This document shows, in pieces, positions 11,926-29,300 of a stretch of DNA of 64,000 nt; the first letter of the stretch is position 1, and the number at the start of each line of letters is the position of its first letter. The notes beneath the pieces are model-generated. The model saw only the letters and a program-made list of their open reading frames with translations. It was not told the DNA's origin and ran no database searches. The stretch covers positions 768,001-832,000 of the forward strand of contig CBDFLJ010000002.1 of NCBI GenBank assembly GCA_965248835.1. Reading direction: 5' to 3'. The DNA comes from Alphaproteobacteria bacterium. Its GTDB lineage: Bacteria; Pseudomonadota; Alphaproteobacteria; MPNO01. A program made the translations under genes and the position numbers.

Positions 11926-12073
11926 GGCCCAAGCGTATATCGGGACCAAAAAAACAGAACAAGGTGGGCGAAATCCGAGAACGTCGGTAGGCTCGCGGCC
12001 ATGTTTGTCGGCTTCCAGGGCCGATCGTGCTAGCCTCTTGACAACGCGGACGGGCGATCCGGGGAAGCGCAAG

Positions 12074-12819
12074 GTGAGAGCACTCGCAACACTATCGACG
12101 GCCCTTGTCGTAATGCTGGACTGGTCCGCCGCCGGTGCCGAGGACAATAAAATAGAGCCGTTCGGACCCGAGTGGTCCATCACCGAGAACCAGCCCTGCC
12201 AGGTGTGGAACGGCGACAGCAGGTTGGAAGAACCATACAGCTGGTCCGGTCGATGCGTCGACGGCAAGGTCTCGGGCGAGGGGCGACTGAGCGCTGCCGC
12301 GGGTCGGTACATCTACGAAGGCGACATGCGGGTCGGCAAGTTTCACGGCTTTGGGATCCTTACCGCACTCATCGGCTTCCGCTACGAGGGCGAGTTTCGC
12401 GATGGCAAGATGCACGGCCACGGCATCGCATCCATCCCAATGGCAACCGCTACGAGGGCGGGTTTCGCGACAACAAGATCCACGGCAGCGGGACGCTCAT
12501 CACAGCCACGGGCCACCGTTACGAAGGCGAGACGCGCGACGACAGGATCCACGGCCGCGGGACTCTCATTGCGGCCGACGGCAGCCGCTACGAGGGCGAG
12601 TGGCGCGACAACAAGGTCAATGGTCGCGGGACTCTAACGTGGGCCAATGGCAACCGATACGAAGGCGCGTGGCAGGACGGCAAGCCGCACGGCTGGGGGA
12701 TCTATGCCAGAACCGACGGCGAGGTTTACGAGGGCAATTGGTCCAACGGTTGCTTTGAGGGGAGAGATGGCCGGCGGGCATTTGTCAAAACGACCGCAGC
12801 GGCCTGCGGCTTCAAATAG
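12074..12819 (+). pseudogene. Secreted MORN-repeat protein, frameshifted at ~12435
   Basis: Signal-like N-terminus; ~7 repeats of YEGxWRDxKxHGxG split over two frames. Confidence 0.85.
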
Positions 12820-12855
12820 CCATATGGGCGAACCAGCGTTCGATAGAGGTCAGCC

Positions 12856-13548
12856 ATGTGCGGGCGCTTCACGCAGATGTATAGCTGGGAGCAGGTACGG
12901 GAATTCCTCGACCTGCTCGGTCCGCCGTAGAACCTCCAACCCCGATACAACGTCGCGCCGTCACAGAACGTCGCCGCGGTCCGCGCGGGCGAGGACGGGC
13001 GGCGGCTCTCGATGATCCGCTGGGGCCTGATTCCGGCCTGGGCGAAGGAGACCTCGATCGGTTACAAGCTGATCAATGCGCGCGCAGAAACCGCGGCATC
13101 GAAGCCGTCATTCCGTGCCGCGTTCAAATCTCGCCGCTGCGTCATCCCGGTGGACGGGTTCTACGAGTGGAAGAAGGAAGGCTCGACCAAGCACCCCTAC
13201 CGCATCCACATGAAGGACGAAGGGCTTTTCGCCTTCGCCGGGTTGTGGGAACGCTGGAAAGTCCGCTAGGGGTTGAAGCTGACAGGCAATCTATCCGACC
13301 GGCGCCCGGGAGACGAGATCGAGACCTGCACGATCCTGACCACCGAGGCGAACGCGTTTCTTGCGCCGATCCACGGCCGGATGCCGGTCATCCTCGACCC
13401 GGACGCGATCGACCCCTGGCTCGGCGGGGAAACGGTGCCGCTGGGCCCGTACCCCTCGGCCAAGATGGCCGCCCATCCGGTCAGCACTCTGGTCAACAGC
13501 CCGAAGAACGACGAGCCGCGGTGCGTGGAAGCGATTGGCGGCGGCTGA
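12856..13548 (+). pseudogene. Second SRAP/YedK copy with two in-frame TAG codons
   Basis: Same 693-nt length as 6169-6861 and highly similar; TAG at 12928 (CAG in copy 1) and 13267 (GAG in copy 1). Confidence 0.95.
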
Positions 13549-13584
13549 CCCGCCCGACACCCGTTGTCCCGTCGTGCACGACGC

Positions 13585-13790
13585 AGGAGCGCCCAAGTCA
13601 CCTCGGGCGCAGGTGGGTAGTGCTTGCGCGCGGCCAGCGTGAAGAACGGATCGTAGGCCCCCGGCACCCCGGCGGCAGCGCAGCGGTAGTCGCCCGCGCG
13701 CGCCTGCGCTGCGGTCGTAGCGGCGGCCAGGACGGCGGTCAGGACGGCGGCGAGGACCGCGGCGACCGCAAGATCCCGGAGGATCACAAC
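13585..13790 (-). pseudogene. Possible N-terminal remnant of a phage lytic transglycosylase/endolysin
   Basis: Signal-like segment, then YDPFFTLAARKHYP...WALL, truncated; follows holin-like genes. Confidence 0.35.
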
Positions 13791-14149
13791 CACACCCCCC
13801 AGACCGTCACGATGAAGATGATCGCGCAGATGCGGATGGTCGCGTTCAGATTCACGCGGTTTGCCGCCTGGACCTCTTCCGCCGTCACCTTGCCGCCGTC
13901 CTTGAGCCGGCCGTAGACGGCTTCGACGATGTCCCAGTTCGGCGCGATCACCCACGGCGCGAATTTCAGGATCGCACCGATGATGGCAAGCCCGAGCGCC
14001 GCCCCGAACACGACATAGAGCGCTTTGCTGGCGAGCACCCCGGCCGATGGCAGTTGCGCGCCGAGATCGATGACGTTGGCCGTCTGCGCCTCGGCCGAGG
14101 CGCCGCCGGCGCAAACCATCAGAACGGCAATGCACAGGATTCCAATCAT
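13784..14149 (-). CDS. Phage-like membrane protein (3 hydrophobic segments)
   Basis: Hydrophobic ORF translationally adjacent to neighbours in a lysis-like module. Confidence 0.55.
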   Translation of the reverse strand: MIGILCIAVLMVCAGGASAEAQTANVIDLGAQLPSAGVLASKALYVVFGAALGLAIIGAILKFAPWVIAPNWDIVEAVYGRLKDGGKVTAEEVQAANRVNLNATIRICAIIFIVTVWGVWL

Positions 14150-14161
14150 CGTAACCCCCGA

Positions 14162-14521
14162 CTACGGTTTGCGCGCTTCCTCGAACCGGCCTTCGAGGCG
14201 GGCCATTTCCTTCGACAGCCCGTTGAGCCGCTCATGCAGCTTGGCCCGGTCGGCCTTCGCTTCGAGCGCCTGGGTGGTGATGACATCGGCCAGCTGATTG
14301 CCCAGGCGGTCGACCGAGTCGCGGATCTCGGCGTGCTCGGTGGTGCATTGCGCACGGTGCTCGCCGCGCCACGACTGCAGCGCCGCGATGTCCTTTTCGG
14401 TCGCCGTGCGAAACGCCGTCGTGTCCTTGATCGATGTCGACAGCCGCATCCACAGCGTCGACAGCCCGACCAGGATGCCGATCAGCCCGGCGATGGAGAT
14501 ATGGCCCAGCGTGATTTCCAT
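14162..14521 (-). CDS. Phage holin/XhlA-like protein (N-terminal TM plus coiled coil)
   Basis: TM ISIAGLIGILVGL followed by a heptad-rich region; position after tail gene. Confidence 0.55.
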   Translation of the reverse strand: MEITLGHISIAGLIGILVGLSTLWMRLSTSIKDTTAFRTATEKDIAALQSWRGEHRAQCTTEHAEIRDSVDRLGNQLADVITTQALEAKADRAKLHERLNGLSKEMARLEGRFEEARKP

Positions 14522-14558
14522 CGATCAGGCGGCCGCGCCGGTTATGGCGGGCTCGGGA

Positions 14559-15755
14559 TCAAGAAGCGAGGTCATTGTCGTACACCACAACGTTATGGGC
14601 GCCGCCCCCTCTTGAGATAAAAGAGGTCGTGGTCTTGTTGACGACCCAGTGGTTCTGTTCTGCCTCCACCGTAAGTTGAACGACGTAGTTCGCGTTCGGC
14701 CGCGCGGTCGTGAATGTCCAAAGTTTCCCGAGGGAGTGTGCGACGACGGACGCAAAGCCATAATTGGCGGTAAAGACATTTCCCGTTGTGCAATGTCCAA
14801 ATGCGACCGGAAGAATGCGGCGCACGTCTTCCTCGAGCGCGGCGTAGGGGATGTCGTTAAGCTGATCGACGGGGACATGGGCGTTATCGTCGAGGCTCGC
14901 CAAGCCGTTGGCGGTACCGCGCGGCAGGCGGCCGATGCCCACCGTCCCGGCCGTGATCTTGTCGGCGTTGAGGCCCGGGATCTTGTCGGCGGCGAGCGTG
15001 CCCTCGGTGATCTTGTCGGCATTGAGGCCGGGGATCGTGTCGGGCGGGAAGGTGCCGTTGTCCTCGAGCGCGGCCAGGTCGCCGGCGGCGGTGCCGACGT
15101 TGCGCCGGACGGCCAAGCCGAGGGGCAAGCCGACAACGAAAAACTTCGAGCCGGTGTAGAGAACGGTGACGAAATCGTTGTCGTGGAAAACGCCCGCCCC
15201 GGCCCGGGTTGCGCCCTGCATGTAGACGTCCTTGGCGCCCAGCCCGGAGACATTGATCGTCACATCGGCCGTGCTCGCGGCCTCGACCTGGAACGTGAAC
15301 CGCTGGCCGCCCGCGTAGGCCGCGATCGCCGGCGACAGGGCGAGGGTGATCGCGTCCGCCGTGCCGCCGACACCGCTGGCGGGAACGATCTCGGGCCGGC
15401 CGTCCTGGATCTGTCCGAGCGCGGCGTATTGGTCGCGGGCCTCGGCGTCGCCAACGCCGGTGTGCTTGCGGCCGCCCATCGGCAGATCGGCCGAGGGCCG
15501 GTTCTGGCCGTCGCGCGTCAGGCAGTTCTCCAGACCGGTCGCGAGGTCTTCGTCATGGGTGTCCGAGACCGCCTCGAGGCGGCTGGCGATGCGCCGGTGG
15601 TGGCCGGCGGGCGCGTAGCTCGGAAGCGTCGCCTCAGTGTAGGCGATCAGGTCGTGGCGCGCCTTGCGGCGCTGCATCTCGGTCAGCAGCGCCGTCAGCT
15701 CGCGCAAGTCCGAGCTGTCGGGCGAGCCGCCTTGCGCGGTCTTTGAGGGAGTCAT
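14559..15755 (-). CDS. In-frame chimera: terminase large subunit N-terminus fused to a tail-fibre-like protein
   Basis: ARHDLIAYT...HHRRIASRLEAV, then DLATGLENCLTRDGQ...LPMGG and IPGLNADKIT repeats; junction ~15565. Confidence 0.7.
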   Translation of the reverse strand: MTPSKTAQGGSPDSSDLRELTALLTEMQRRKARHDLIAYTEATLPSYAPAGHHRRIASRLEAVSDTHDEDLATGLENCLTRDGQNRPSADLPMGGRKHTGVGDAEARDQYAALGQIQDGRPEIVPASGVGGTADAITLALSPAIAAYAGGQRFTFQVEAASTADVTINVSGLGAKDVYMQGATRAGAGVFHDNDFVTVLYTGSKFFVVGLPLGLAVRRNVGTAAGDLAALEDNGTFPPDTIPGLNADKITEGTLAADKIPGLNADKITAGTVGIGRLPRGTANGLASLDDNAHVPVDQLNDIPYAALEEDVRRILPVAFGHCTTGNVFTANYGFASVVAHSLGKLWTFTTARPNANYVVQLTVEAEQNHWVVNKTTTSFISRGGGAHNVVVYDNDLAS

Positions 15756-16113
15756 CGTCGAGGTCTCGGAACTCTCCGGGTGCGCCGACCTCGCGGCGCT
15801 CTATCAGCATGCCGAGATGCTTGGCAAGCGTCGTCCATGCCGCAACCCGCGCACCGTGGCTCGACCCTTCGCCGGTCCTGCGGGCCTCGGCGAGCAGCCC
15901 GGCGACCACGTCGTTCGCCGTAAGCGCCAGGTCCCTGGCGCGTGCGCTCATCAGCCGATCGATCTCGGCGGCCACCGCTTCATGGCGCAACAGCCGCCAG
16001 CCGGTCCGTCCCGCCGACCGCGCACTATACCCGGCGCGCACCGCCGCCCGGGTCGCGTTGAGGTCAACGATATACGCGGCGGCAAACCGCCGCTGTCGCG
16101 CGGTCATGGTCAT
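15634..16113 (-). CDS. terS: Phage terminase small subunit
   Basis: TARQRRFAAAYIVDLNATRAAVRAGYS...LAKHLGM. Confidence 0.9.
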   Translation of the reverse strand: MTMTARQRRFAAAYIVDLNATRAAVRAGYSARSAGRTGWRLLRHEAVAAEIDRLMSARARDLALTANDVVAGLLAEARRTGEGSSHGARVAAWTTLAKHLGMLIERREVGAPGEFRDLDDDSLKDRARRLARQLGLARADGAADRDAAPQGAPRPDRLH

Positions 16114-16213
16114 CGAACAAGCCTTGCAAGGCGATCGTGTCGTTCGTCAATATGTTTCCGCCGCCGAGCCGGCGGACGCTTGCGGCGCGTAACGCTGCGC
16201 GCTACAGTGAGGC

Positions 16214-16486
16214 ATGAAGATCAGGCACAGGGGACTGCGGGCGTTGCACGAACGCGACGATGCCGCGCGGCTGCCTGCCGGTCTGGTGGCACGGCTCCGG
16301 CGCATCCTGTTCCGGCTGCAAGAGGCGGCGCATCCGGGCAGCGCCGACGCGCCCGGCTTCCGGCTGCATCCCCTGAAGGGCGACCGCGCGGGCCAGTGGA
16401 GCGTTCGCGTCTCCGGCAACTGGCGTGTGGTGTTCCGCTTCGAGGACGGCGAGGCTGTGGACGTGGACCTGATCGACTATCACTGA
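16214..16486 (+). CDS. higB: HigB toxin
   Basis: RHRGLR...PGFRLHPLKGDRAGQWSVRVSGNWRVVFRF...LIDYH. Confidence 0.92.
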   Translation: MKIRHRGLRALHERDDAARLPAGLVARLRRILFRLQEAAHPGSADAPGFRLHPLKGDRAGQWSVRVSGNWRVVFRFEDGEAVDVDLIDYH

Positions 16487-16505
16487 CCGAAGGGGAGCGC
16501 TGACC

Positions 16506-16820
16506 ATGAACGACATTGCAAACGACCGCGTTGGCCCGATGCAGAACCCGCCCCACCTGGGCGAACTGATCCGCGAGAGCATGGACGAAATGGGCTGGAA
16601 CGTGACCGAGACGGCGGCGCGCCTCGGCTGCGAGCGCGGAACGCTGTCGCGGCTGCTGAACGGCAAGGCGGGCGTGTCCGCGAACATGGCGCTGGCGTTG
16701 GAGGACATCGGCTGGGGCACCGCCGAGCACTGGATGCGGATGCAGGCGAGCTACGAGCTTGCGCAGGCGCGCCGGGACCGCGCCGCCGCCGACCGGCGCG
16801 CGGGCGCATTGCACGCATGA
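16506..16820 (+). CDS. higA: HigA antitoxin
   Basis: MQNPPHLGELIRE plus HTH; WMRMQASYEL. Confidence 0.92.
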   Translation: MNDIANDRVGPMQNPPHLGELIRESMDEMGWNVTETAARLGCERGTLSRLLNGKAGVSANMALALEDIGWGTAEHWMRMQASYELAQARRDRAAADRRAGALHA

Positions 16821-16914
16821 TCCGGTTTCGGGGATGCGCTGCGGGGGCGGGGACCGTCCCGGATGCCGTCGTTCGTCTGTCCGTGCCGCTTGCGGCCAAC
16901 GGCAAGCTGTCCCT

Positions 16915-17075
16915 CGCTCGGCGGCTATCAGGTGTTCAAGAAATGGCTCTCCCACCGTAAAAGCGATATCCTCGGACGTGCGCTCAAGCCCGAAGACATC
17001 CGGCATTTCGCCGATACGGCGCGGCGGATTTTCGGGATATTGGGCATGTCAGGAGCAAGGATGACGAATAAATGA
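16915..17075 (+). pseudogene. C-terminal remnant of a type ISP-like restriction-modification enzyme
   Basis: LGGYQVFKKWLSHR...LGRALKPEDIRHFADTARRI. Confidence 0.65.
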
Positions 17076-18061
17076 GCAGCAACACGACTTGCCCGATTTG
17101 GGGTACGCCAGCCACCCTAGCTTTAGAGAAATACGGACGATATGTGGATTCGCCGCGTGCGGGCGGCAGGTACTTTATTTCCGGATTGGCAGAAGTCGTT
17201 CTAGGAAATTGCGATGATCGTGTGAAGGTGCGGCTTACGACTTGGTTAGTCGAACAGCGTCGACTCGGGATCTCGTGTCCAGAAATTGATACAGAAACGA
17301 TTAACGACGCGGAACAGCAGAGAGATACGGACGTTTCCGATCGCGCCGATGGCATTCTCAGATATCTGGCGACAAGATCGGAAATTCTGGGAACAAGGAT
17401 TGCCTATCGCATCTTGGTCAAATTGTCCGACGAGATACAACTGGACGATCTCTATAAGTCCTATTTTGAGATTCTTTCACATTCCGGCTGTGTTGGTTAT
17501 GATGATTTTCTTTTCCTTCTGAACTATCTGCAAAAGTGCGGTTTGATTGAATGCAGCGGCACCACTAATCCAATACAGAAATGTGCTTTGACTGTGGATG
17601 GTTACGCGAGACTGGCCGAACTGGAAAAAACCTATACGGCTTCTCCAAGAGCTTTCGTCGCGATGTGGTTTGATCCTTCCATGGACGAAGCCTGGAAACA
17701 TGGATTTGATCCAGCGATCCGCAACGCGGGGTACCAGCCGGTGCGGATCGATCAGCAGCAGCATTTGAACAAGATCGACGATGAGATCATCGCCGAAATA
17801 CGCAGAGCTCGCTTTGTTGTGGCGGATTTCACGCAAGGCGACAAGGGAGCGCGCGGCGGCGTCTACTATGAAGCGGGGTTTGCGCATGGCCTCGCTATCC
17901 CGGTCATATTTACGTGTCAGAAGGATTCGCTTGATAATATTCATTTTGATACACGTCAATACAACCACATCGTGTGGACTGAACCGGAGGAACTGCGGAG
18001 CAGTTTGACAAGCCGTATCGCTGCCGTGATCGGAGATGGACCGAACAAGCCTCCAGACTAA
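17072..18061 (+). CDS. Protein with C-terminal nucleoside 2-deoxyribosyltransferase/TIR-like domain
   Basis: AFVAMWF, IDDEIIAEIRRARFVVADFT, GGVYYEAGFA, HFDTRQYNHIVW; lower GC. Confidence 0.8.
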   Translation: MSSNTTCPIWGTPATLALEKYGRYVDSPRAGGRYFISGLAEVVLGNCDDRVKVRLTTWLVEQRRLGISCPEIDTETINDAEQQRDTDVSDRADGILRYLATRSEILGTRIAYRILVKLSDEIQLDDLYKSYFEILSHSGCVGYDDFLFLLNYLQKCGLIECSGTTNPIQKCALTVDGYARLAELEKTYTASPRAFVAMWFDPSMDEAWKHGFDPAIRNAGYQPVRIDQQQHLNKIDDEIIAEIRRARFVVADFTQGDKGARGGVYYEAGFAHGLAIPVIFTCQKDSLDNIHFDTRQYNHIVWTEPEELRSSLTSRIAAVIGDGPNKPPD

Positions 18062-18080
18062 CAACAAAACAAACTTCGAC

Positions 18081-18590
18081 TCATGTGGCCGCGTCCGCCA
18101 TCGTCTCCGCGGTGACGCTTCCGACCCTCTCCGCAACCTCGACAAGATATGTGTCGGCAAGATGAGCGTATCCGGCTGTCGTTCGATGCCGCCGGTGCCC
18201 GAGCAGCTTGCCGACCAGCGGCAGGTTTTCGCCCGACATGACGGTGTGACTGGCGGCGGTGTGCCGAAGGTCATGCAGGCGCAGCCTGCCGAGCTTCGCG
18301 TCCGCGCAGACAGTGCGCCAACAATCCGTCAGTATCCATATGCCCCGGCCTTCGGCATGCCGTGGAAACAGATGCGCCTCCGGGTTGCGGGGACCGGGCA
18401 GCGCTTCGATCAGCGCCAGCGCGGCCTCGCCGAGCGGCACCGCGCGGGCCGGTCTTGGAGTCGGGCAGGTTGATCGCGTCGCCGCCGATGTCGCGCCAGC
18501 GCAGATTGAGCACTTCGCTCCGGCGACATCCCGTCAGCGCCAACAGCCGGATGGCGGCGACGGCCTGGGAGGGCTCTACGTGGAAATGCC
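18081..18590 (-). pseudogene. Tyrosine recombinase C-terminal remnant, frameshifted
   Basis: LLALTGCRRSEV, LHDLRHT, LLGHRRHRTTAGYAH; 5' part missing. Confidence 0.9.
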
Positions 18591-18634
18591 GGCGAAGATC
18601 TCCTATGGTCAAACGGGATGGAGGATGAACGACC

Positions 18635-18976
18635 ATGACTGTCTTCGACCAGCGCGGCCAGACGGTTGGCTGGCAATACAACGCGGCGGGCAACATCAAT
18701 TTTGGAGCGGTGTCAAATCGCGCCGCGTTTCACGACGAGCTCCGGAAACTGGAGGCGGAGGTGGCTTCCGCCATATCCGCCAAGGCGATCGAAGGCGAGA
18801 TTGCTGTCGATGTCGAACATGCCATGAAGAAGGCAGTGATACAGGCGGAGAAGCCGGAGCCGGAGAAGTCTGCACTGGTCGAGTACCTGACCAGGGCCAA
18901 GGATCTGGTCGCCGGCGTATCGGGGTTGGCCGGCGCCTTCTCGGCGGCGATCAAACAGGTTCAATCACTCTTCTGA
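18635..18976 (+). CDS. Small helical protein with N-terminal Q/N/G-rich motif; candidate NLR effector
   Basis: GGAGG RBS; FDQRGQTVGWQYNAAGNINFG, then a helical domain with an amphipathic C-terminal helix. Confidence 0.8.
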   Translation: MTVFDQRGQTVGWQYNAAGNINFGAVSNRAAFHDELRKLEAEVASAISAKAIEGEIAVDVEHAMKKAVIQAEKPEPEKSALVEYLTRAKDLVAGVSGLAGAFSAAIKQVQSLF

Positions 18977-18988
18977 GGGTCCGACATC

Positions 18989-20821
18989 GTGTCCGCTATC
19001 GATCAGAAGGGGCAACAGGTCGGCGTCCAGGTCAACATCGCCAATCTCGGTGTTTCCTCCGGTGCCAAGCCGTTGCACCGCCCCCGCCGAGCGGCGCACT
19101 TCACGGGACGTGAGGAGGAGCTGGCGCGTCTGCTGGATGCGTTGGCGCCCGGTCGGGCGGTGACGGTTCACGCACCCGGCGGCATGGGCAAGACGGCGCT
19201 CGTGGCCGAGCTGGTTGCCCGTTACGCGCCGGGTGAGGAGCCGCCGGAGGCGTTTCCCGACGGCGTCGTGTTCTACAGCTTCTACGGTCAGCCGGAGGCG
19301 GACCGGGCTCTGGAGTTCATTGCGCGCGCTTTCGGGTTGGAGCCCAAACCGAGCGCGGACGATGCGGCGCGTCTCGCGCTCTCGGGTGCGCGGGCGATGG
19401 TGGTGCTCGACGGGGCGGAGGAGGCGGGTGACCTCGGCCGGGTGCTTGCGTGCGCGGGTGATGGTTGTTGTGTGGTGGTGACGACGCGTCGTCGTGCGGA
19501 TGCGCCGGACGATGCCCACTGTCACGAGCTTCATCCGTTGCCCGAGCACGATGCCGTGGCGCTGTTGCGGGAGTGGTCGGCGGCGCAGGTTGATGACCAG
19601 GCGGCGGCGGAGCGTATCGTTGCGCTGGTTGGTCGGCTGCCGCTGGCGGTGCGGTTGGTGGGTCGTTACCTGGCGCAGACCGGCGAGTCGGCAACGGCCT
19701 ATCTACATTGGCTGGAGACGACGCCGCTGGAAGCGCTGGCGCCGGGCGAGGGCGCTCTTCACCGTGAAGACAGCGTGCCGCATCTGCTGGAGCGTAGCCT
19801 GGGGCAGGTGAGCGAGTCCGCCCGCCAGATACTGTCGGTGGTGGGGCGCGTGGCGTTGGCGGACTTCGACGCTTCGATGCCCGTCGAGGTGCTCGAATAC
19901 GACGAAGGTGAGCGTCGGCGTGCGTATCGGGAGCTGGCCGGTTACGGGCTGCTGCTGAGGGCGGACGAGCGCTATGCGGTCAGTCATGCGTTGATACACA
20001 CATATGCGCGCGAGCGGCTGGCAGTCATGCCGGCGCGGATGGCCCGACTCATCGCGCACTACGAGGCGGTGGTCCTACGGGAAAGCGCCGAAGGAGCGGA
20101 AGGGCACGCGCGCCTGGCCGCCGAGCACCCGCACCTGATGCATCTCATCGGCGACGGAGTGTCGCGTAAGGAATGGGAGACGGTGCAGCGTCTGGTGCGG
20201 GCGGCGGCCGGCTACCTGGACCTCTCCGGACGCTGGGCGGATCAGGAGGTCGCGCTGGATGCGGGTGTAACGGCTGCGAGGGCGCGCGCGGACCGCGGGG
20301 CGGAGGGGGCTTTCCTCGACAGACTGGGCAATGCCTACACGGAGCTTGGCCAGGTCGAGCGCGCCATCGAGCACTACGAGCAGGCGCTGGTCATTCAGCG
20401 CGAGATAGGCGACCGGGGCGGGGAAGGAAGCGTCCTCGGCGACCTGGGCAATGCCTACACGGAGCTTGGCCAGGTCGAGTGCGCCATCGAGCACCACGAG
20501 CAGGCGCTGGTCATCGCGCGCGCGATGGGCGATCGGCGCGGGGAAGGGGCCACCCTTGGCAACCTGGGCCTTGCCTACGCGGAGCTTGGCCAGGTCGAGC
20601 GCGCCATCGAGCACTACGATAAGGCGCTGGTCATTCACCGCGAGATAGGCGACCGGCGCGGGGAAGGGACCGTCCTCGGCAGCCTGGGCAGCGCCTACGC
20701 GAAAATTGGGGAAGTGGCGCAGGCGCGCGCGTGTTGGGAGCAAGCGCTGGTTATCTTCAAGGACATCAATTCGCCTGACGTTGAACGCGTCACGCGCTGG
20801 CTCGCCGGCCTGGATTCGTAA
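18989..20821 (+). CDS. NLR-like STAND NTPase (NB-ARC plus TPR)
   Basis: FTGREEEL, Walker A APGGMGKT, Walker B VVLDGAE, VVTTR, GRLPLA, SHALIH; 40-aa TPR repeats. Confidence 0.92.
   Translation: MSAIDQKGQQVGVQVNIANLGVSSGAKPLHRPRRAAHFTGREEELARLLDALAPGRAVTVHAPGGMGKTALVAELVARYAPGEEPPEAFPDGVVFYSFYGQPEADRALEFIARAFGLEPKPSADDAARLALSGARAMVVLDGAEEAGDLGRVLACAGDGCCVVVTTRRRADAPDDAHCHELHPLPEHDAVALLREWSAAQVDDQAAAERIVALVGRLPLAVRLVGRYLAQTGESATAYLHWLETTPLEALAPGEGALHREDSVPHLLERSLGQVSESARQILSVVGRVALADFDASMPVEVLEYDEGERRRAYRELAGYGLLLRADERYAVSHALIHTYARERLAVMPARMARLIAHYEAVVLRESAEGAEGHARLAAEHPHLMHLIGDGVSRKEWETVQRLVRAAAGYLDLSGRWADQEVALDAGVTAARARADRGAEGAFLDRLGNAYTELGQVERAIEHYEQALVIQREIGDRGGEGSVLGDLGNAYTELGQVECAIEHHEQALVIARAMGDRRGEGATLGNLGLAYAELGQVERAIEHYDKALVIHREIGDRRGEGTVLGSLGSAYAKIGEVAQARACWEQALVIFKDINSPDVERVTRWLAGLDS
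20324..20720 (+). repeat. 120-bp tandem repeats encoding TPRs
   Basis: CTGGGCAATGCCTACACGGAGCTTGGCCAGGTCGAG-like units at 20324, 20444, 20564; diverged unit at 20684. Confidence 0.9.
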
Positions 20822-20941
20822 GCCGAGCGAAGCGCGGCGGCGCGGCGCCGGCGCCCGAGCAGGCGCCCGGCGGTGGGCAGGCCTCACCGTTCATCACGCT
20901 CCGGGACGCCGAGACGGGCCGGCGGTCCCGGTCGGCACCTT

Positions 20942-21090
20942 GATTGCATCGCAATCGCTGCTCAGGTCGGGGTTTCCGGCCATCGGAGCGCACGATGATC
21001 GCGAGCATCACGATCCGCAATCTCGACGACGACGTGAAGACCCGGCTGCGCACCCGCGTGGCGGGGTGCCGGCGTTCGAGGTCATCACAC
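20942..21090 (+). pseudogene. fitA-like antitoxin 5' remnant with operator-like palindrome
   Basis: GATTGC-ATC-GCAATC, then ASITIRNLDDDVKTRLR; the following bases resemble a PIN C-terminus (GCGxEVI). Confidence 0.65.
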
Positions 21091-21168
21091 CGACCCCCGG
21101 CGAGCAATACCGGCCAGCGGCCGGCCGCGACCGCGAAAAGCGTGCGGCCGGCCTCGCGATATGCGGCC
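21088..21168 (+). repeat. ~80-bp dispersed direct repeat, copy 1
   Basis: Core GCCGCGACCGCGAAAAGCGTGCG also present at 38692-38773. Confidence 0.8.
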
Positions 21169-21198
21169 GGGAGAGCCGGTGCTGGCGCCTGAACCGTC

Positions 21199-22203
21199 CT
21201 ACATCGCGCTTTCGGGTACCTTGACGCCGGCTTCCTTGTAGTAGCGCAACGCGCCCGGGTGCAGCTTCATGTTCATCTGCCTGAACGCGTTGCCCAGGTT
21301 GATGGCATCCTTGGCCCAGGACGCGACGGCGTGCATCTCGTCGATGTGTTCCCAGAAGGTCTTGGTCATCTTGTAGATGACCGCGTCCGGAATCCCCTTT
21401 CTGGTGACCAGGCCGACCCAGGCGGCGATCGTCTGCACCGGCTTTTCATTGGCCTGGTTCGGGCCGTAGATATCGGCTGCGAACTGGCCGCGCGTGCGGC
21501 CCGGAAGCGACATGACCTTCTTCATCGCCGGCAACTCCCAGTCCGCGTCGGCCGCCCCGATGAAGCGGATCTTGTTGGTCAGCGCCACTTGAACGAAGTT
21601 CGAGGCGGGCGGATTGCCGGACGCCACCAGAACGTCGATCTGGCGGTCCTGGAAGGCCTGCATGGCGGGCGAGAAGCCGAGTTTGATGACCTCGTAGTCC
21701 TTGCCCGGCTCCAGACCGCTGATCGCCCTGACGAAGCCGCCGGCGACGATGCGCTGGACCGCAGCCGGGGGACCCAGGAACACGCGCTTGCCCTTGAGGT
21801 CGGCCATCTTCCTGATGCCCGAATCCTCGTAGACGCCGAACTGGTAGAAACCGATGCGGTAGTTGAACACCGCACGCAAATTGCCGGCGAGTTGCTTGGC
21901 GTTCTTGACCTTGGCAAACATGGCGCGTGCGTTGGACATCAGATAGTGGACCGACGGGGCCCCCATCAGGAAGTCGGTCTTGCCGCGTGCCGCATCGAGG
22001 GCGTGACGAGGCGCCGCGCCGGTGGCGTTGATCTGTATCTCGATGTCCGGATTGTATTTCTGGACCAGCTTCGCGAACGTCGTGTTGATGGTGAACGGCG
22101 TCGGCAGGCTGATCGTCGACATCCGATAGAATTCCTTGGCCTCGACGCCGCCGGCAAGCCCGGCTGCCAGCCCCGCGACCGCAAGTGTCATGAGCGCCTT
22201 CAT
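21199..22203 (-). CDS. TAXI-family TRAP solute receptor
   Basis: Signal peptide; DLKGKRVFLG, LHPGALRYYKE. Confidence 0.92.
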   Translation of the reverse strand: MKALMTLAVAGLAAGLAGGVEAKEFYRMSTISLPTPFTINTTFAKLVQKYNPDIEIQINATGAAPRHALDAARGKTDFLMGAPSVHYLMSNARAMFAKVKNAKQLAGNLRAVFNYRIGFYQFGVYEDSGIRKMADLKGKRVFLGPPAAVQRIVAGGFVRAISGLEPGKDYEVIKLGFSPAMQAFQDRQIDVLVASGNPPASNFVQVALTNKIRFIGAADADWELPAMKKVMSLPGRTRGQFAADIYGPNQANEKPVQTIAAWVGLVTRKGIPDAVIYKMTKTFWEHIDEMHAVASWAKDAINLGNAFRQMNMKLHPGALRYYKEAGVKVPESAM

Positions 22204-22268
22204 GGGGATCGTCCCTCCGTTCGATCGGTGCGCGATCATCGCCGATGCGCCGGCCGCGACCGCGCGGT

Positions 22269-24170
22269 TCACTGTTCGGTTTCCGCCGAAACGTTAGCAT
22301 ACCGCGCCCGCCTGGCATCGATAAACAGCAGCAGGAACGACAGGGCGACCGCGGCGACCTGGATTTCGGCCGCGCTGAGCAGCGTTCCCAGCCCCAGGAT
22401 CAGCCGTGCCGCCCGGGACCAGTAGGGCAGCAACGCCCGATCGACGCCGCCGAGGGCCGTGGTCATCAGCCAGATCGCCAGCGCCAGCCGCGCCACCACC
22501 CAGAGAAAAGCTACGGTCTCGAATTCGACGACCAGGGAAAGAGACGGGTTGTAGACGAAGACGAAGGGGACGATGAAGCCGACGAACGAGAGCTTGAGCG
22601 CCTGCACGGCCGTCGTCATCGGATTGGAGCCGGCGATCGGCGCGGCCGCATAGGCGGCGATGGCGACCGGCGGGGTGATCGCCGACAACACGCCGTAATA
22701 GAGCACGAACAGGTGAACCAGGATCTTGGGAACGCCGAGATTTTCGATCGCCTGGCCCATGATCAGCACGATGATCAGATAGGCCGGGATGGTCGGCAGA
22801 CCCATGCCGAGGATCATGCTGGCGAGCGCGACCAGAAACATGGCGAAGAACAGATCGGTCCCGGCGAAGGCCAGGATCATGTTGGAGAACCTGATGCCGA
22901 GCCCGGTCAGGTTCATCACGCCGACGATGATGCCGATGGCGGCAACCGCGACCATTATCCGGCCGCACTGCTCGCCCCCTCTGGCCAGCGCCGTGAGATA
23001 CACCTGCGGCTTCCTGCGGACCTCCGGGTTCATCGCGCCCAGCGCCGCGCCGACGACGGTCGCCCACAACCCGGCCATCGCCGGGGAGCGCCCGGTCACC
23101 AGCACGCCGATGATCACCAGGATCGGAATGACGAACATCAGCGACATCCACCAGTCCCTGCGCGACACTTTTTCGCGCCGCGACCGGGGTATGGCCTCGA
23201 TGCCGTTGCGTGCGGCTTCCACCCACACCGCGACGAACAGGCTGCCGTAGTAGAACAGCGCCGGCATCAGGGCGGCGCCGATGATCACGACATAGGGGAT
23301 GCCGGTGACGTCGGCCATCACGAAGGCCACCGCGCCCATGACCGGCGGCATGAACTGCCCGCCGGAAGACGCCGCCGCCTCGACTCCGCCGGCGAAGGAA
23401 TTGCTGAAGCCGCGCTCCTTGATCATCGGGATCGTGAACACGCCGGTGCCCACCACGTTGGCGGAAACGCTGCCGGAAATGGTCCCGAAGAACCCGCTGG
23501 CGGCGATCGCCGCATGGGCGGGGCCTCCCCGCAGACCGCCGGTGAGGCTCACCGCGATGCGCAGCAGGACCGCGCCCGCCCCGGTCGCCTCGAGCACCGC
23601 GCCGAAGACGATGAAGATGAAAATCAGCGATATGACGGTGATGACGATGAAGCCGAAGACGCCGTCGAAGGAATACCAGACGGTGCGCATCACCTGTTCG
23701 AGATCGTAGCCGGCATGGGCGAAGATCCACGGCAGGTCTTCGCCGAACAGGGCATAGGCGATGCACAGCAGCGACAGCACGGCGAGCGGCCAGCCGAAGG
23801 CGCGCCGGGTCAACTCGAGCACCGCAAGCAGCCCGCCTGCACCGACCACGATATCGTCGCGCAGAAAATCGTAGAGACCGCTCTCCAGCTCATCATAGAC
23901 CGAGGCGAACCAGTACAGCGACAGCGCCATCAGAGAGATCAGCGCCCCGTCGATCGCCAGACACGCGAACCGGACCAGCCCTGCGGGCCTCCCGCCGACG
24001 ACCCGGACCAGCGGGACCGCGAGGGTAACGAGAATGACCGAGGCGCCGACCGTGATCGAGCGCTGGTAGATCTCGTCGATCACGCCGAACGCCGCGGTGT
24101 AGATCGCCATCAGGGCAATGCCGAATGCGATCGCCTTGATCAGCCAGCCCGAAACGTCGATGCGCAACAA
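22269..24170 (-). CDS. TRAP fused 4TM/12TM permease
   Basis: GGPAHAA, ANVVGTG, ASSGGQFMPPVMGAVAF, ILGMGLPT, ITPPVA. Confidence 0.95.
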   Translation of the reverse strand: MLRIDVSGWLIKAIAFGIALMAIYTAAFGVIDEIYQRSITVGASVILVTLAVPLVRVVGGRPAGLVRFACLAIDGALISLMALSLYWFASVYDELESGLYDFLRDDIVVGAGGLLAVLELTRRAFGWPLAVLSLLCIAYALFGEDLPWIFAHAGYDLEQVMRTVWYSFDGVFGFIVITVISLIFIFIVFGAVLEATGAGAVLLRIAVSLTGGLRGGPAHAAIAASGFFGTISGSVSANVVGTGVFTIPMIKERGFSNSFAGGVEAAASSGGQFMPPVMGAVAFVMADVTGIPYVVIIGAALMPALFYYGSLFVAVWVEAARNGIEAIPRSRREKVSRRDWWMSLMFVIPILVIIGVLVTGRSPAMAGLWATVVGAALGAMNPEVRRKPQVYLTALARGGEQCGRIMVAVAAIGIIVGVMNLTGLGIRFSNMILAFAGTDLFFAMFLVALASMILGMGLPTIPAYLIIVLIMGQAIENLGVPKILVHLFVLYYGVLSAITPPVAIAAYAAAPIAGSNPMTTAVQALKLSFVGFIVPFVFVYNPSLSLVVEFETVAFLWVVARLALAIWLMTTALGGVDRALLPYWSRAARLILGLGTLLSAAEIQVAAVALSFLLLFIDARRARYANVSAETEQ

Positions 24171-24649
24171 ACCGCTTCCTTCCAGACCGCCCCGCCAGAC
24201 CGTCCCGCCAGACCGCCGGTTCGAGCGTTCGGCGCGCCGCCGCGGTTCCGACCAGGACGGTTGCCGTCGAAGGCGTGCCCGTATTCCGGAACCGGTGCCG
24301 TGTCGTAGCGTTCATCGTAGTTTACAACCGGATGAACCTCACCATCGCCTTTCCGTCGGTCGAACGCGTCGTCGACGAGGATCAATCGGCCGGCCGCGCC
24401 GTTTCCATTCAAAAAACGGCAACATCCGCGGCCCTGCAAGGAAGATCGAGCGTGTTCGGCGGCTGGGTGGCCGGGTGCGGTATGCTGCCCGGGGGCTCGG
24501 GAGGATGGGTCGTGATGCCGGTTGACACCGCGCCTGGGCGTCCGTGTAGTTGGTTATTGACTGATTGATAAGGGCGCCCGGCAAGGTAGTCCCAGCAAGG
24601 CAGGTATGGCTTACGGCGAAATCGAGTCACCCGGCACGGGACCGAGGGC

Positions 24650-25843
24650 ATGAGTGCCGCGCTTCGCATGGTTCACGGCGTGACCCACCACGAACCGGCG
24701 CGCGCTCGCCCCGGCTACACCCTGTTCGCCCCGATGTACGGCCGCAACGTGTGGCTCATCGACATGTGGGGCGCCATCGTCCAGCGTTGGCAGACGGAAA
24801 ACCAGCCGGGCAACTACGGCGAGCTCCTGCCCAACGGCAATCTGCTGTTCGCCGGGCGCACCGTGCCGCCCGCGATCCCCGAGTTCGCCGGCAATGGCGG
24901 GCAGATCGTCGAGCTGGACTGGGACGGCCGCACGGTCTGGGAGTACCGGGACCCCTGGCTGAGCCACTGTTTCGCACCGCTGCTTAACGGCAATTTGCTG
25001 GTGGCCAAATGGCGGGCGGTGCCGCGAGAGATTGCCGCCCGGGTCCGCGGCGGCCAGCCCGGCACCGAGCTTCGCGGCGATATGTACGGTGAGGCGGTCC
25101 AGGAGATCGACCGGAACGGCGCGGTCGTCTGGGAGTGGCTTACTTTCGAGCACCTGGATCCGGAACGCGACGCCATCGGCCCTTTCCATCCCCGCGACCG
25201 GTGGACCAATCTCAACGCGCTCACCGAAATGCCGGACGGGCGCATCCTGGTGAGCTTCCGCTGCATCGACACCATCGCCATCGTCGACAGGCGGACCGGC
25301 AACATCGATTGGCGCTGGGGGCCGGGCGAGATCGCCGGCCAGCATCACCCCACGTGGCTGGAGAACGGCAACATCCTGGTCTTCGACAACGGCGCACACA
25401 GGGCATACACGACGATCGACTTCTCCCGGGTTCTGGAGGTCGATCCGCGCACCGGCACGATCGCGTGGGAATACAAGGACAACCCGGTCTACGACTTCAA
25501 CAGCTTCATCTGCTCCGGCGCCCAGCGCCTGGACAACGGCAACACGCTGATCTGCGAATGCACCAAGGGCCGCCTATTCGAGGTGACCCGGGAGGGGGAT
25601 CTGGTGTGGGAGTTCGCGAGTCCGTTCTATTACGAGCACCCGATCTTCGGGTCCAACAACATGGTCTTCCGCTGCACCCGCTACGACCAAGGCCATCCGG
25701 GCATTGCCGGGGCGGATTTGGACCCGGGGCGCTACGCGGACCTGAACGCCCTGATGCCCCGGCGGTTCGTGCGCAGCCCGCGCAGCAACCAGGCGCTGGC
25801 TGCCAGCTATGCGCCGGGCGATCTGGTTCGCGGCGGGCACTAG
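24650..25843 (+). CDS. Arylsulfotransferase (ASST) family beta-propeller protein
   Basis: LLPNGNLL, QHHPTWLENGNILVFDNG, SGAQRLDNGNTLICE. Confidence 0.85.
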   Translation: MSAALRMVHGVTHHEPARARPGYTLFAPMYGRNVWLIDMWGAIVQRWQTENQPGNYGELLPNGNLLFAGRTVPPAIPEFAGNGGQIVELDWDGRTVWEYRDPWLSHCFAPLLNGNLLVAKWRAVPREIAARVRGGQPGTELRGDMYGEAVQEIDRNGAVVWEWLTFEHLDPERDAIGPFHPRDRWTNLNALTEMPDGRILVSFRCIDTIAIVDRRTGNIDWRWGPGEIAGQHHPTWLENGNILVFDNGAHRAYTTIDFSRVLEVDPRTGTIAWEYKDNPVYDFNSFICSGAQRLDNGNTLICECTKGRLFEVTREGDLVWEFASPFYYEHPIFGSNNMVFRCTRYDQGHPGIAGADLDPGRYADLNALMPRRFVRSPRSNQALAASYAPGDLVRGGH

Positions 25844-25960
25844 CCGAACCGGTTCAGGGGCCGGCGGCGGCGCGCTGCCGCAAGACAATAAAGTGAAGAT
25901 GACGCGGCCGAAGAAGCTCCTATCGGCCGCGGCCGCGGTGCCGCCGCCGGGCGTCCTCGC

Positions 25961-26050
25961 CGGCGCCGAGAGACGCTGGTCTCGGATATTGAGACGATGC
26001 TGCGCGCCGCCTTCGAGGATCGCGTGCTGCCGTTCGGCAGCGCCGCCGCA
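25961..26050 (+). pseudogene. Internal fragment of a FitB/VapC PIN toxin
   Basis: RRRETLVSDIETMLRAAFEDRVLPFGSAAA. Confidence 0.55.
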
Positions 26051-26347
26051 GTCGTGCAATGCGTCTCCCCACCGCAGACCATGGCCCATTACGCCCGCCT
26101 CGCCGCCGACCCGGCCGGACAGGCGGCGGCGGATGTGCCGGCCGGCATTGAAGCGGCCTTGGGATCGGTGGATCTGTAAACCGTGTCTGATCCACTCCTC
26201 GTCAATGTTACAGGCGCGGCGGGCGCGGGCGCGGCCGGCGAAGAGGACAGCTTGACCGCAAGCGGACGCGCATGGATGATGCATAACGACATTATCGACG
26301 CCGAAAACACCAGTAGCCTGGCGTCGTGTCGAACAGTTGCGTGCAGA

Positions 26348-29300
26348 ATGACGGATTCCGTGAGATCTTTCCCACGACTGGCAATCATCGGCGCAGTCCT
26401 CGCCGCCGCGGCGCTGCTGCTCGGCTTTTCCGCGCCGGCGCACGCGCAGGTGCTCGTTAGCAACACGGGCCAAACCACTCACGGCCATACAGCATGTGTC
26501 TGAGAGCCGATCCGGAAAGTTTGAATCTATGGTGAGTGTGTTGCGGCGAGTCTGCGCAGCATGATGCGGATCATGGCGAGTCGGATGAAGGCGACGACGG
26601 ATCGAACGTGACGTTCGAAGTCGCGAGCGAGGCGCCTGTTGCGGCTGATCCAGGCGAAGGTGCGTTCGACAATCCAACGCTTTGGCAGCACCTCGAAGCG
26701 GGGCACGTCGTTGCGCTTGACGATCTCGAGCCGCCACCCCCCGGTCTTGGCGACAGTCGCGGCCATCTTCGGTCCCTGATAGCCGCCGTCGGCGTAGATC
26801 ACCTCGATGAATGGGAACCGTCGCCGGGTGCGGCGCAAGAGCTCGTGGGCACCGTCGCGATCCTGAACGTCGCCGGAATGCACCACGATGCCCAGCATCA
26901 GGCCGAGCGTGTCGACCATGATGTGCCGCTTGCGACCGGTGACCTTCTTGCCCGCATCGAAGCCTTGATCGTCGATCGACGCCCCCCTTTTTGCGCCGCC
27001 TTGGCGCTCTGGCTGTCGATGACCGCGGCCGACGGGCTGGCTTCGCGTCCTTCCTCATCGCGCACCGCGACGTAGAGTTCATGATGGATCCGCTCCAGCG
27101 TGCCATCCCACTCCCATAGATCGAAATAGTCGTACACCGTCGACTTCGGCGGCAGATCCTTGGGCAGTGCATTCCACTGGCAGCCCGTGGACAGCACGTA
27201 GAAGATGCCGTTCAGAACCTCGCGCACGTCGACTGAGCGCTTGCGCCCGCCGCGCTTGGCAGGCGGGATCATTGGCGCGATCAGCGCCCACTCGGCGTCG
27301 GTCAGATCACTCGGATAGCGAAGTCCGCGACGTTCCGCCGCGCGGCGGTGTTCCGCAGTCCACATCGGGCTTCCTCCTGTAAACCGGATGCCCAGCACAG
27401 AATCACAAACGATTCTTCCGATTCAAGAACTTTCCGGAAGGGCTCTTAGGTTCTGAACCAATAATAGAACTAGACTGTGCTCAGGGGTTCACCACGGGCC
27501 AGAATACGCGGGGCTACGACCTATCAAGTATCCAGTTGGACACGCAGGGGGCTCCGGGTAGTGGAACCCTGACGGTCACGGTGAGAGCCGCCACCGGATC
27601 GGGTCGCCCGCGCAACGCGGTCTTATACACCTTGACCAACCCGTCCAACGTGGGGACGGGACTCCAGACATTCACCGCCCCTGGCGGAGCCCGTCTGAAT
27701 CGAGACACCCAATACTTCGTGCACATGACGTTTGACGGTAGCGGAACCAGACCTCGTTGGAACCTGACGGCTAACGACGACGAAGATTCCGGCAAGGCCA
27801 TAGAGTGGAGCATCGGCGATCACCGCTACACGCGCCGGTCTGACGGAACCGGGGGCTGGGAGGGTGATGGCGGTGTGTACTCGGGTTCGATACAAATCAG
27901 GGTCCAGGGGAACACCTTGGCCCCGGCGGCCCCGAACCTCTCGGCCGCGCCGGGTGAAACCCAGGTGGCGCTGACCTGGGACGATCCGGCCAACAACACG
28001 ATCACCAAGTACCAGTATCGCTGGAAAACAGGCGACGACGCCTACGGCAACTGGACCGACATCGACGGCAGTGATGCGAGCACCGACAGCTACACCGTGA
28101 CCGGCCTCACCAGCGGCACCGCGTACACGTTTGCGGTGCGTGCGAAGAATGTTGGCGGCAACGGCGCAGCAGCCACCGTGACCACCGCGACGCTTCCGGC
28201 CGCCCCGAACCTCTCGGCCGCGTCGGATGAAACCGACGAGGTGACGCTGACCTGGAGCGATCCGGGCAACAACACGATCACCAGATACCAGGTCCGCTCG
28301 AAGGTGAGTGACTGCGACGACTGCACCTACACTGCGTGGGCGAACATCGCCGTCACCGACCCCGATGCGCCCCCCACCGGATACACCGTGACCGGCCTCA
28401 CCAGCAGCACCGCGTACACGTTTGCGGTGCGTGCGAAGAATGTTGGCGGCAACGGCGCAGCAGCCACCGAGACCGCCGCGACGCTTCCGGCCGCCCCGAC
28501 GAGCCTCTTGCCCGTGCCGGGTGACGGCGCGGTCACGCTGTCCTGGTCCAATCCGGGCGGCGACACGATCGCCAGATACCAGGTCCGCTCGAAGGTGACG
28601 GACAGCACCTACACTGCGTGGACGGACATCGACGGCAGCGGTGCGGACACCACCGAACACACCGTGACCGGCCTGACCAACGGCACCGAGTACACGTTCG
28701 AGTTGCGCGCGAGGAACATTTCCGGTCCCGGCCGGGCATCCACCGCGACCGCGACGCCGCGTGCGCCACCGGACGCCCCGGAGGGCCTCTCGGCCGCGCC
28801 GGGTGACGGCCAAGCCACGCTGTCCTGGATCAATCCGGGCGACAACACAATCCGGAAGTACCAGGTCAGCACCGACGGCGGCGGGAACTTCACCGACATC
28901 AGCGGCAGCAGTCGGACCACCACCACACACACCGTGACCGACCTGAGCAACGGCACCCAATACACGTTGGCGCTGCGCGCGGCGAACGCTTACGGAAACG
29001 GCGATCCGGCCAACGCCCCTGCTATTCCCCTGTGGCCCGCCCCGGCGAACCTCTCGGTCACGCAGGGTGAAGACCGCAAGGCCACTCTGACCTGGGACGA
29101 TCCGGCTGACATCACGATCGCCAAATACCAGGTGAGCACCGACGGCGGCGTTAACTACACTAACATCATCGGCAGCAGTGCGGCCACCACCACACACGAG
29201 GTGACCGGCCTGACCAACGGCACCGCATACACGTTGGCGCTGCGCGCAGCTAACGATTTAGCTGGCGGTACGGCCGCCGCCATTACCGCCACGCCACTGT

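Follow-up and report, generated by a model that had tools for sequence, protein, structure and literature searches.

The window examined here, a 64,000-nt stretch of contig CBDFLJ010000002.1 (positions 768,001 to 832,000) from an alphaproteobacterial genome assembly, carries a compact cassette of two co-oriented genes that encode a small protein of 113 amino acids (aa) and, directly downstream, a 610-aa NOD-like receptor (NLR) of the STAND type with NB-ARC and TPR domains (Table 1). The coordinates of the two open reading frames (ORFs) agree with an earlier note on this DNA, which had placed the genes 12 nt apart: the stop codon of the small-protein gene ends at 18976 and the NLR starts at 18989. 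A GGAGGA box lies 9 nt upstream of the ATG of the first gene. The same note had reported nine identities in 14 positions between residues 5-18 of the small protein and residues 5-18 of the NLR, a result that we could reproduce; when the first 45 residues of the small protein are compared with the entire NLR, the best ungapped 14-mer begins at residue 5 of both proteins, with a score that none of 300 shuffles reached.

A motif profile built from homologues of the small protein only was then run over the 4.89-Mb genome (76,062 six-frame ORF segments of 30 aa or more). The adjoining NLR ranked second, directly after the small protein itself, with a weak match (11.3 bits, E 0.83; next match, E 3.2). 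Because the NLR is the best non-self match genome-wide, and because the motif heads the next gene in 24 of 39 related loci, the resemblance between the two proteins is, judged from their sequences, not a matter of chance.

Table 1. Features of the two-gene cassette (positions in the window) and types of motif-bearing partner found with the small protein (L numbers denote loci of the survey).
Feature	Position or loci	Strand	Basis
Small-protein gene, 113 aa (motif + four-helix bundle), proposed effector	18635..18976	+	ATG start, ORF list
NB-ARC-TPR (NLR-type STAND) gene, 610 aa, proposed sensor	18989..20821	+	GTG start, ORF list + Pfam
Shared N-terminal motif, small protein residues 4-25	18644..18709	+	Family alignment
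Predicted four-helix bundle, small protein residues 29-113	18719..18973	+	AlphaFold2
C-terminal hydrophobic, glycine-containing helix 4, residues 94-113	18914..18973	+	Kyte-Doolittle
NLR N-terminal motif, residues 4-22	18998..19054	+	14-mer match + partner alignment
NB-ARC NTPase, NLR residues 49-244	19133..19720	+	Pfam PF00931, E 4.2e-8
Walker A GGMGKT, NLR residues 64-69	19178-19195	+	Sequence
TPR region (proposed sensor part), NLR residues about 421-600	20249..20788	+	Pfam TPR families
Tandem 120-nt units in TPR region, 3.2 copies	20313-20698	+	Tandem Repeats Finder, 84% matches
Two-gene cassette common to window and nearest relative L001	18608..20814	+	blastn
Partner: NB-ARC + TPR	Window, L001, L028		
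Partner: NACHT + HEAT	L003		
Partner: NACHT + FGE-sulfatase	L025, 2.8 kb upstream		
Partner: TPR only, 439 aa	L016		
Partner: ~170-aa TPR protein, then conserved ~250-aa predicted membrane protein	Nine loci, three phyla		
Partner: ~519 aa with SH3_3 C-terminus	L010		
Partner: weak VWA	L019		
Partner: EAD10 + motif + STAND NTPase	L029		

Sequence and predicted structure of the small protein

The small protein matches no Pfam or NCBIfam family. Its 18 close homologues measure 105-131 aa and are best conserved in their N-terminal 25 residues, where the motif follows the consensus F-D-Q-R-G-Q-x-V-x-Y-Q-Y-N-A-A-G-x-I-N-F-G-A-V. Across 49 family sequences F4, Q6, Q9, V11 and Q14 are invariant, and G97 is kept in at least 90%. 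The motif is rich in glutamine (16%), asparagine (15%) and glycine (12%), with very little leucine (0.9%) or lysine (1.3%) and no proline.

AlphaFold2, run with the 49-row alignment, predicts a four-helix bundle (helices at residues 29-48, 55-72, 78-91 and 98-112) with a mean predicted local distance difference test score (pLDDT) of 83.9 and a predicted TM-score (pTM) of 0.74, and assigns low pLDDT to the motif (mean 48 for residues 1-10 and 62 for residues 11-20). Helix 4, at the place of the C-terminal helix quoted in the earlier note (residues 91-113), is the only hydrophobic one, with a mean Kyte-Doolittle hydropathy of +1.06, while helices 1-3 have means between -0.48 and -0.45; in helix 1 (mean -0.45), 37% of the residues are charged. 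In all 49 family members the most hydrophobic 19-residue window falls within the last 35 residues.

A Foldseek search of the PDB with this model gave no match at E<=0.001, and VIA-align against 48,161 chains returned generic four-helix bundles only, the best at Z 11.3, where a Z of about 13 is a common level for helical bundles. For the predicted bundle, the fold searches neither support nor exclude any named fold. A profile search of the PDB by sequence found only designed helical bundles (E>=0.007), the ESM Atlas yielded three unnamed clusters of this same family (112, 77 and 52 members) together with leads to DUF4404 and DUF5955 at 0.91, and tblastn of the small protein against plasmid and phage collections found no match.

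Recurrence of the motif in neighboring genes

A survey in which each prokaryotic species was represented by one genome gave 40 loci; with the window counted in, 39 loci hold the full module of motif and helical domain. A co-oriented gene that bears the motif starts -22 to +90 nt downstream in 24 of the 39, and in 23 of these 24 the distance from the start codon to the partner's motif is exactly four residues. According to their record titles, the loci belong to Pseudomonadota (Alphaproteobacteria), Chloroflexota, Cyanobacteriota (many), Acidobacteriota, Nitrospirota, Planctomycetota, Desulfobacterota and Bacteroidota, and one further locus lies on a short contig of an Asgard metagenome-assembled genome (MAG), which brings the total to about nine phyla.

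The 24 partner N-termini follow the consensus M-x-x-[FYI]-[DN]-Q-x-x-Q-x-V-x-x-Q-x-N, with Q9, Q14 and N16 invariant, and their motif contains 23% Q, 16% N, 12% V, 5% K and only 0.3% each of L and P. Bacterial amyloid signaling motifs of the BASS kind are described by Dyrka et al. (10.1101/2020.01.06.895854) as having much Q, N, G, V and I but little K, P and L, and both the small-protein motif and the partner motif agree with this enrichment and depletion. When the 24 N-termini are aligned, the motif is the only thing common to the partners, and no recognized effector domain was found in those tested. The earlier note had asked whether homologues of the small protein are linked to STAND genes with co-varying motifs; the link to a motif-headed next gene stands, but the partner is not always an NLR and can instead be a TPR-only, SH3 or VWA protein.

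A three-gene form occurs in L004-L007, L009, L018, L027, L031 and L036 (for example L004:6394-7682), from Cyanobacteria and from one MAG each of Acidobacteriota and Bacteroidota, in the order small protein, motif-TPR protein of ~170 aa and protein of ~250 aa. The third protein has a basic N-terminus and a hydrophobic stretch and belongs to no Pfam family; in the cyanobacterial loci a conserved gene of 150-170 aa lies divergently upstream. At L019:5450-9544, four consecutive motif-headed genes (172, 116, 174 and 328 aa) are followed by the gene for the 546-aa VWA protein.

Longer relatives and the wider bundle family

In all 53 longer homologues the module forms the C-terminal end of the protein (at most seven residues from the end). 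The N-terminal fusion is AbiTii in 26 of them, and CHAT (P0030), cNMP-binding, DUF2513, an unnamed family of ~234 aa and others make up the rest; at L020 and L029 a caspase domain precedes the module. The motif is internal in these 53 fused proteins, 100-390 residues from the N-terminus and always N-terminal of the helical domain. This agrees with the layout that the earlier note had called a mirror image of Bell, the module being always C-terminal, with its motif N-terminal and its hydrophobic helix last.

With a bundle-only profile, 674 cluster representatives (50% identity) were found at E<=0.001, 353 of them at E<=1e-10. Among 141 of the best 150 of the 674 (the other nine had already been included before), the bundle lies within eight residues of the C-terminus in 140, and the motif is strict in 84 and a variant or clearly different Q/N/G-rich sequence in 49, the remaining eight proteins being N-terminally truncated. 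A model of an AbiTii fusion (26 sequences) shows both domains with confidence and a pLDDT below 50 at residues 204-224 between them; the family-invariant residues span 217-234, and the inter-domain motif contains most of them. In the models, then, the motif is the most conserved part and yet is predicted to be unstructured, in the stand-alone protein as well as in the AbiTii fusion.

These properties bear on an alternative in which the shared motif is a docking peptide of a non-amyloid kind, which would pair stoichiometrically with its counterpart or with a globular surface (e.g., by beta-strand augmentation) and would keep the small protein on its sensor until activation releases or re-positions it, with no self-propagating cross-beta assembly. 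Adjacent genes with a short shared motif are expected equally under docking, AlphaFold2 predicts, with low confidence, two strands of minimal length (residues 4-5 and 9-10), and the partners that carry no NTPase fit simple binding more easily than induced oligomerization. We nevertheless regard docking as unlikely: the motif is the sole element shared among unrelated partner architectures, which points to motif-motif contact, its Q/N/G-rich and L/K/P-poor make-up is that of known amyloid signaling motifs, and it is invariant yet predicted to be disordered in both contexts.

Elsewhere, AbiTii domains carry HEPN RNase effectors at the same C-terminal position, according to two studies (PMC3710099; PMC13064643), so the module appears to occupy an effector slot. 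A different role, which we hold to be improbable, is that of an adaptor or regulator, by which the small protein would buffer or cap the sensor motif against spontaneous assembly, or form a bridge to an effector encoded elsewhere. Such a role would suit the fusion of the module to bona fide effector domains (caspase at L020 and L029, CHAT in P0030), the third conserved gene, for a predicted membrane protein of ~250 aa, in many cyanobacterial, acidobacterial and Bacteroidota loci, and the fact that no enzymatic or pore-forming family matches the bundle. It is harder to reconcile with the window, L001 and most loci, where no other conserved gene stands beside the pair and no alternative effector is visible, with the module's place at the C-terminus, which is taken by HEPN effectors in other AbiTii proteins, and with the free C-terminal hydrophobic helix, whose position is kept in all 53 longer homologues and in 140 of the 141 cluster representatives.

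The Asgard (Promethearchaeota) MAG mentioned above holds, at L038:57-4351, a stand-alone module followed by an AbiTii-module fusion and then by a 937-aa protein that includes a DNA methylase domain; as the contig measures only 4.9 kb, its archaeal assignment is to be taken with care.

PDC-M14B and a second motif

The PADLOC database (PADLOC-DB v2.0.0) represents component B of the candidate system PDC-M14 by the models PDLC04449, PDLC04451 and PDLC04448, and 44 of the 49 small-protein family members match PDLC04449 (best E 2.8e-7). The small protein of the window does so with an E of 7.8e-4, its residues 14-112 aligning to profile positions 162-261 of 267, and the family as a whole matches only the last ~100 of the 267 model positions. 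No PDC-M14A match at E<=0.01 was found in the window NLR or in the motif-bearing partners of L004, L010 and L011. PADLOC PDC systems are untested candidates; the PDC-M14 model carries no description, and a literature search found no paper naming it, while a broader search on candidates of this type gave only unrelated papers among the ten listed. Going by these profile matches, the helical domain is not wholly unrecorded, as it matches part of the listed but undescribed PDC-M14B.

A search of 400 further genomes of the phylum with the PDC-M14B model gave one match, the alphaproteobacterial locus L043 (L043:1474-3206, minus strand). There, a 128-aa bundle homologue (PDC-M14B, E 1.3e-8) carries a different, alanine/glycine-rich N-terminal motif, which matches residues 420-433 of the 443-aa protein encoded directly upstream at nine of 14 positions (a score reached by 0 of 300 shuffles); this 443-aa protein has no Pfam or PADLOC family. 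The pair therefore suggests that the bundle takes exchangeable motifs and that the partner's copy can be C-terminal. The PDC-M14B model also matches in a control genome, that of Methanosarcina acetivorans, and Methanosarcina is noted for Bell domains and NLRs by Dyrka et al. (10.1101/2020.01.06.895854).

The L043 pair and the fused proteins also bear on the possibility that the resemblance is a compositional accident, or an N-terminal targeting or export signal that plays no part in signaling. The weak match in the single-genome scan and the equal distance of both motifs from their start codons, reminiscent of sorting signals, would fit such an origin, which we rejected as scarcely credible given the recurrence in 24 of 39 loci across phyla and the score that no shuffle reached. 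An N-terminal signal peptide in particular is ruled out because the motif is internal in 53 fusions and C-terminal in the L043 partner.

The NLR partner and the mobility of the cassette

Besides the NB-ARC domain, Pfam recognizes TPRs at about residues 440-600 of the NLR (TPR_1, E 7.6e-25). Only ~30-45 residues precede the NTPase and no Pfam domain was found there, in keeping with the earlier note's view that the NLR lacks an effector domain of its own. The protein combines an NB-ARC domain with an intact Walker A and C-terminal repeats, as NLR-type STAND proteins do, and, like the NLRs of Bell/BASS pairs, where the N-terminal motif measures ~20-25 aa, it is devoid of an effector domain and bears its motif (residues 4-22) at the N-terminus. 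The Pfam models for RHIM, HET-s, fungal sigma and HeLo are absent among its 23 Pfam matches, and the small protein has no Pfam match at E<=0.1.

In a comparison with the nearest relative, L001, the TPR region agrees in 141 of 189 residues and shows 48 non-synonymous and 10 synonymous codon changes, and the preceding part of the NLR (residues 31-420) agrees in 358 of 390 residues and shows 32 and 24, respectively. On these counts, the TPR region shows an excess of amino-acid change, as would be expected of an immune sensor.

When positions 12001-27000 of the window were compared with L001 by blastn, one main match with 92.8% identity was obtained, which covers the cassette and leaves the flanks unmatched. 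As this homology ends at the borders of the cassette, the pair appears to form one unit. A search of 60 relatives, of which two belong to the same genus, 17 to the family and 41 to the order, did not find the small protein in any of them. The cassette is, by these sequence comparisons, mobile and sporadic, the pair apparently moving together.

Genomic surroundings

The earlier note had placed the pair among remnants of toxin-antitoxin, restriction-modification and integrase genes. HigB/HigA (16214-16820) and a 119-aa integrase fragment (18081-18440, minus strand) are indeed present, but no restriction-modification gene was found among the 28 window ORFs scanned, in a scan that was not exhaustive. 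The neighborhood is crowded with mobile and defense-type genes; a phage small terminase also occurs there (Pfam). Just upstream of the integrase fragment, a 329-aa protein (17072-18061, plus strand) matches the PADLOC "TIR effector" in its C-terminal part (E 1.3e-9) and, weakly, Nuc_deoxyrib_tr (Pfam E 1.3e-4, below cut-off); this TIR-like gene is possibly a separate defense gene. The DNA is contained in four sequencing runs, all from one study and none of RNA.

Two inverted copies of 952 nt (99% complementary) of an IS4/IS5-family insertion sequence (IS) element, with ORFs for DUF4096 and DDE_Tnp_1, lie at 10741-11692 and 26498-27449. They bracket 14.8 kb with phage remnants, HigBA, the TIR-like gene, the cassette, a TRAP-type transporter and an arylsulfotransferase-like gene, and in layout the stretch resembles a composite transposon. 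A gene for an SOS-response associated peptidase (SRAP) at 13012-13548 (plus strand) is split into ORFs of 85 and 91 aa (profile positions 58-139 and 141-214), with an intact 230-aa copy 6 kb off (6169-6861, plus strand). Minus-strand ORFs also contain, at 27923-28995, four units in tandem (270-294 nt long, 60-93% identical) that look like repeated protein domains. The start of the window holds genes of the conflict type, all on the plus strand, for a cytidine/MafB19-like deaminase (403-1008), an HTH + IrrE/M78 peptidase (2049-3137) and a short Schlafen/AlbA_2 fragment (3215-3502), among which IS630- and IS3-type transposases are found; an IS5-type transposase lies in the neighborhood too.

Proposed mechanism

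Taking together the gene pair, the shared and recurrent motif, the modular build of the proteins and the prediction of a disordered motif beside a helical bundle, we infer a mobile immune-type cassette in which a sensor and an effector of the BASS/Bell kind are coupled by motif templating in an inverted topology, and we put the probability of this full mechanism at about 0.55. The NB-ARC-TPR protein would be the sensor and the 113-aa protein its cognate effector, the two being coupled through the short Q/N/G-rich motif that lies four residues after each start codon. Binding of a ligand by the fast-evolving TPR repeats would cause the NLR to oligomerize, gathering its N-terminal motifs into an ordered template, most likely of cross-beta (amyloid-like) structure, which would recruit and convert the same motif on the small protein. 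Conversion would destabilize the adjoining four-helix bundle and free its C-terminal hydrophobic, glycine-containing helix, which may then act on the membrane so that the cell is killed or arrested. The cassette would thus have the layout of Bell/BASS-NLR and HET-S/NWD2 in reverse. Assembly through motif-motif contact is the simplest account that we can offer because a short, invariant and disordered Q/N/G-rich motif is all that a constant small protein and its variable neighbors have in common.

Several observations weigh against this mechanism. Helix 4 is only moderately hydrophobic (best 19-residue window, median 1.43, range 0.92-2.09) and is packed inside the bundle in the AlphaFold2 model, so that its insertion into a membrane is a conjecture, and no HeLo, MLKL or Bell-like chain is among the listed fold matches, only generic helical bundles. 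No structure prediction obtained here displays amyloid or motif-motif contact; complex prediction from the small-protein alignment and partner N-termini gave an ipSAE of 0.00 in two runs that had no controls, which is uninformative either way. No adjacent motif gene is found in 15 of the 39 loci, most of which have fused forms or a motif gene farther off on the same strand (L025, L033, L002). The ~170-aa TPR, SH3 and VWA partners have no NTPase to drive oligomerization, and the fusion of the module to caspase or CHAT, which are effectors themselves, suits an adaptor role equally.

The co-variation between the motifs of a pair is likewise modest. When the 23 immediately adjacent pairs were re-paired 20,000 times, a similarity at least as high as that observed arose 469 times over all 24 columns and 351 times over the variable columns; with near-duplicates removed (15 pairs), it arose 1,502 and 1,165 times. 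A wider set, which took in a paralogous module pair (L038) and non-adjacent pairs, had given 2-3 of 20,000 (29 pairs) and 12-19 of 20,000 (20 pairs) and was superseded by the stricter test; related loci are not independent in these tests, and the outcome depends on the pairs counted. Co-variation is clearest among the Nitrospirota, in loci L016 and L024, whose small proteins and partners deviate in the same way in the second half of the motif.

More tentatively, and with more doubt than confidence on our part, the module may be a widespread, undescribed "plug-in" executioner of cell death, with prion-like templating at its N-terminus, a free C-terminal helix and an exchangeable motif, for which the template could lie at either end of the sensor, as L043 would suggest. 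Read in this way, it would extend over at least 674 clusters, from bacteria to an Asgard archaeon, as a mirror of HeLo, Bell and MLKL-type effectors, and its sensors would include NLRs, NTPase-free TPR, SH3 and VWA proteins, AbiTii and cNMP-binding domains. If so, prokaryotic amyloid-type signaling would be tied neither to NLRs nor to multicellular lineages.

For fungi, it is established that an immune sensor can signal in an amyloid-type manner to a death effector encoded by another gene. To our knowledge, the bacterial cases comprise few motifs, always C-terminal on the effector, and mostly from filamentous Actinobacteria and Cyanobacteria. To these the cassette would add an effector fold of opposite polarity, a new motif family, sensors other than NLRs and hosts beyond the multicellular lineages, and the proposed mechanism would give a function to several hundred "hypothetical protein" clusters and to PDC-M14B. 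With two genes in 2.2 kb, the cassette offers a compact system for a direct test of templating.

Comparison with known systems

The cassette resembles the Bell/BASS-NLR pairs (10.1101/2020.01.06.895854) in its adjacent co-oriented genes with a very short spacer, in the combination of a helical protein of ~100-140 aa with an NB-ARC or NACHT protein that has TPR or other repeats and no effector domain, in the short Q/N/G-rich motif at the NLR N-terminus that is copied on the small protein, and in the internally repetitive TPRs. Unlike Bell, where the effector-side motif is C-terminal, the small protein bears it at its N-terminus (residues 4-25). Bell is described as having about five helices with the hydrophobic one first, whereas four are predicted here with the hydrophobic one last. 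Some partners here lack an NTPase, and the hosts reach Pseudomonadota, Nitrospirota, Acidobacteriota, Planctomycetota, Desulfobacterota and an Asgard MAG. In the accessible text of the BASS, PCFG (probabilistic context-free grammar) and deep-learning papers and of a 2026 review, effector-side motifs are placed at C-termini, and no description of an N-terminal one was found in that part of the amyloid-signaling literature, although the motif or the effector may be among the "other BASS" pairs catalogued in their supplements; the accessible text of papers from the Aravind group gave no relevant passage on amyloid motifs.

The Bab/Agp pair of E. coli ECOR25 couples a 109-aa helical effector to a TPR protein by an amyloid motif and provides abortive-infection defense, according to Ibarlosa et al. 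(10.1101/2024.11.07.622273). As described there, it shares with our cassette a helical effector beside a TPR sensor that, as in some of our loci, is not an NLR, an amyloid motif (BASS11) at the sensor N-terminus, and a proposed activation in which the effector unfolds in part and so sets free a hydrophobic helix that contains glycine. By the same account, Bab has its motif at the C-terminus and helix 1 as the hydrophobic helix, and Agp contains GreA/B-C and PIN domains. Bab/Agp is proven by experiment, whereas the present pair is known from sequence and predicted structure; neither the sequence nor the fold comparisons brought up Bab, although the fold searches do not exclude a match.

In HET-S/NWD2 of Podospora anserina, too, a templating motif at the N-terminus of an NLR activates a helical, pore-forming protein encoded by the adjacent gene (as summarized in 10.1101/2024.11.07.622273). 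This system is fungal, however, and its HeLo domain has the membrane helix at the N-terminus and is followed by a C-terminal prion domain of two repeats. The AbiTii-HEPN proteins, finally, as outlined by Anantharaman et al. (2013, PMC3710099), compare with the 26 of 53 longer relatives that have AbiTii at the N-terminus and the module at the C-terminus; in these relatives the motif and the four-helix bundle replace the HEPN RNase, and the protein of the window carries the same module without AbiTii.

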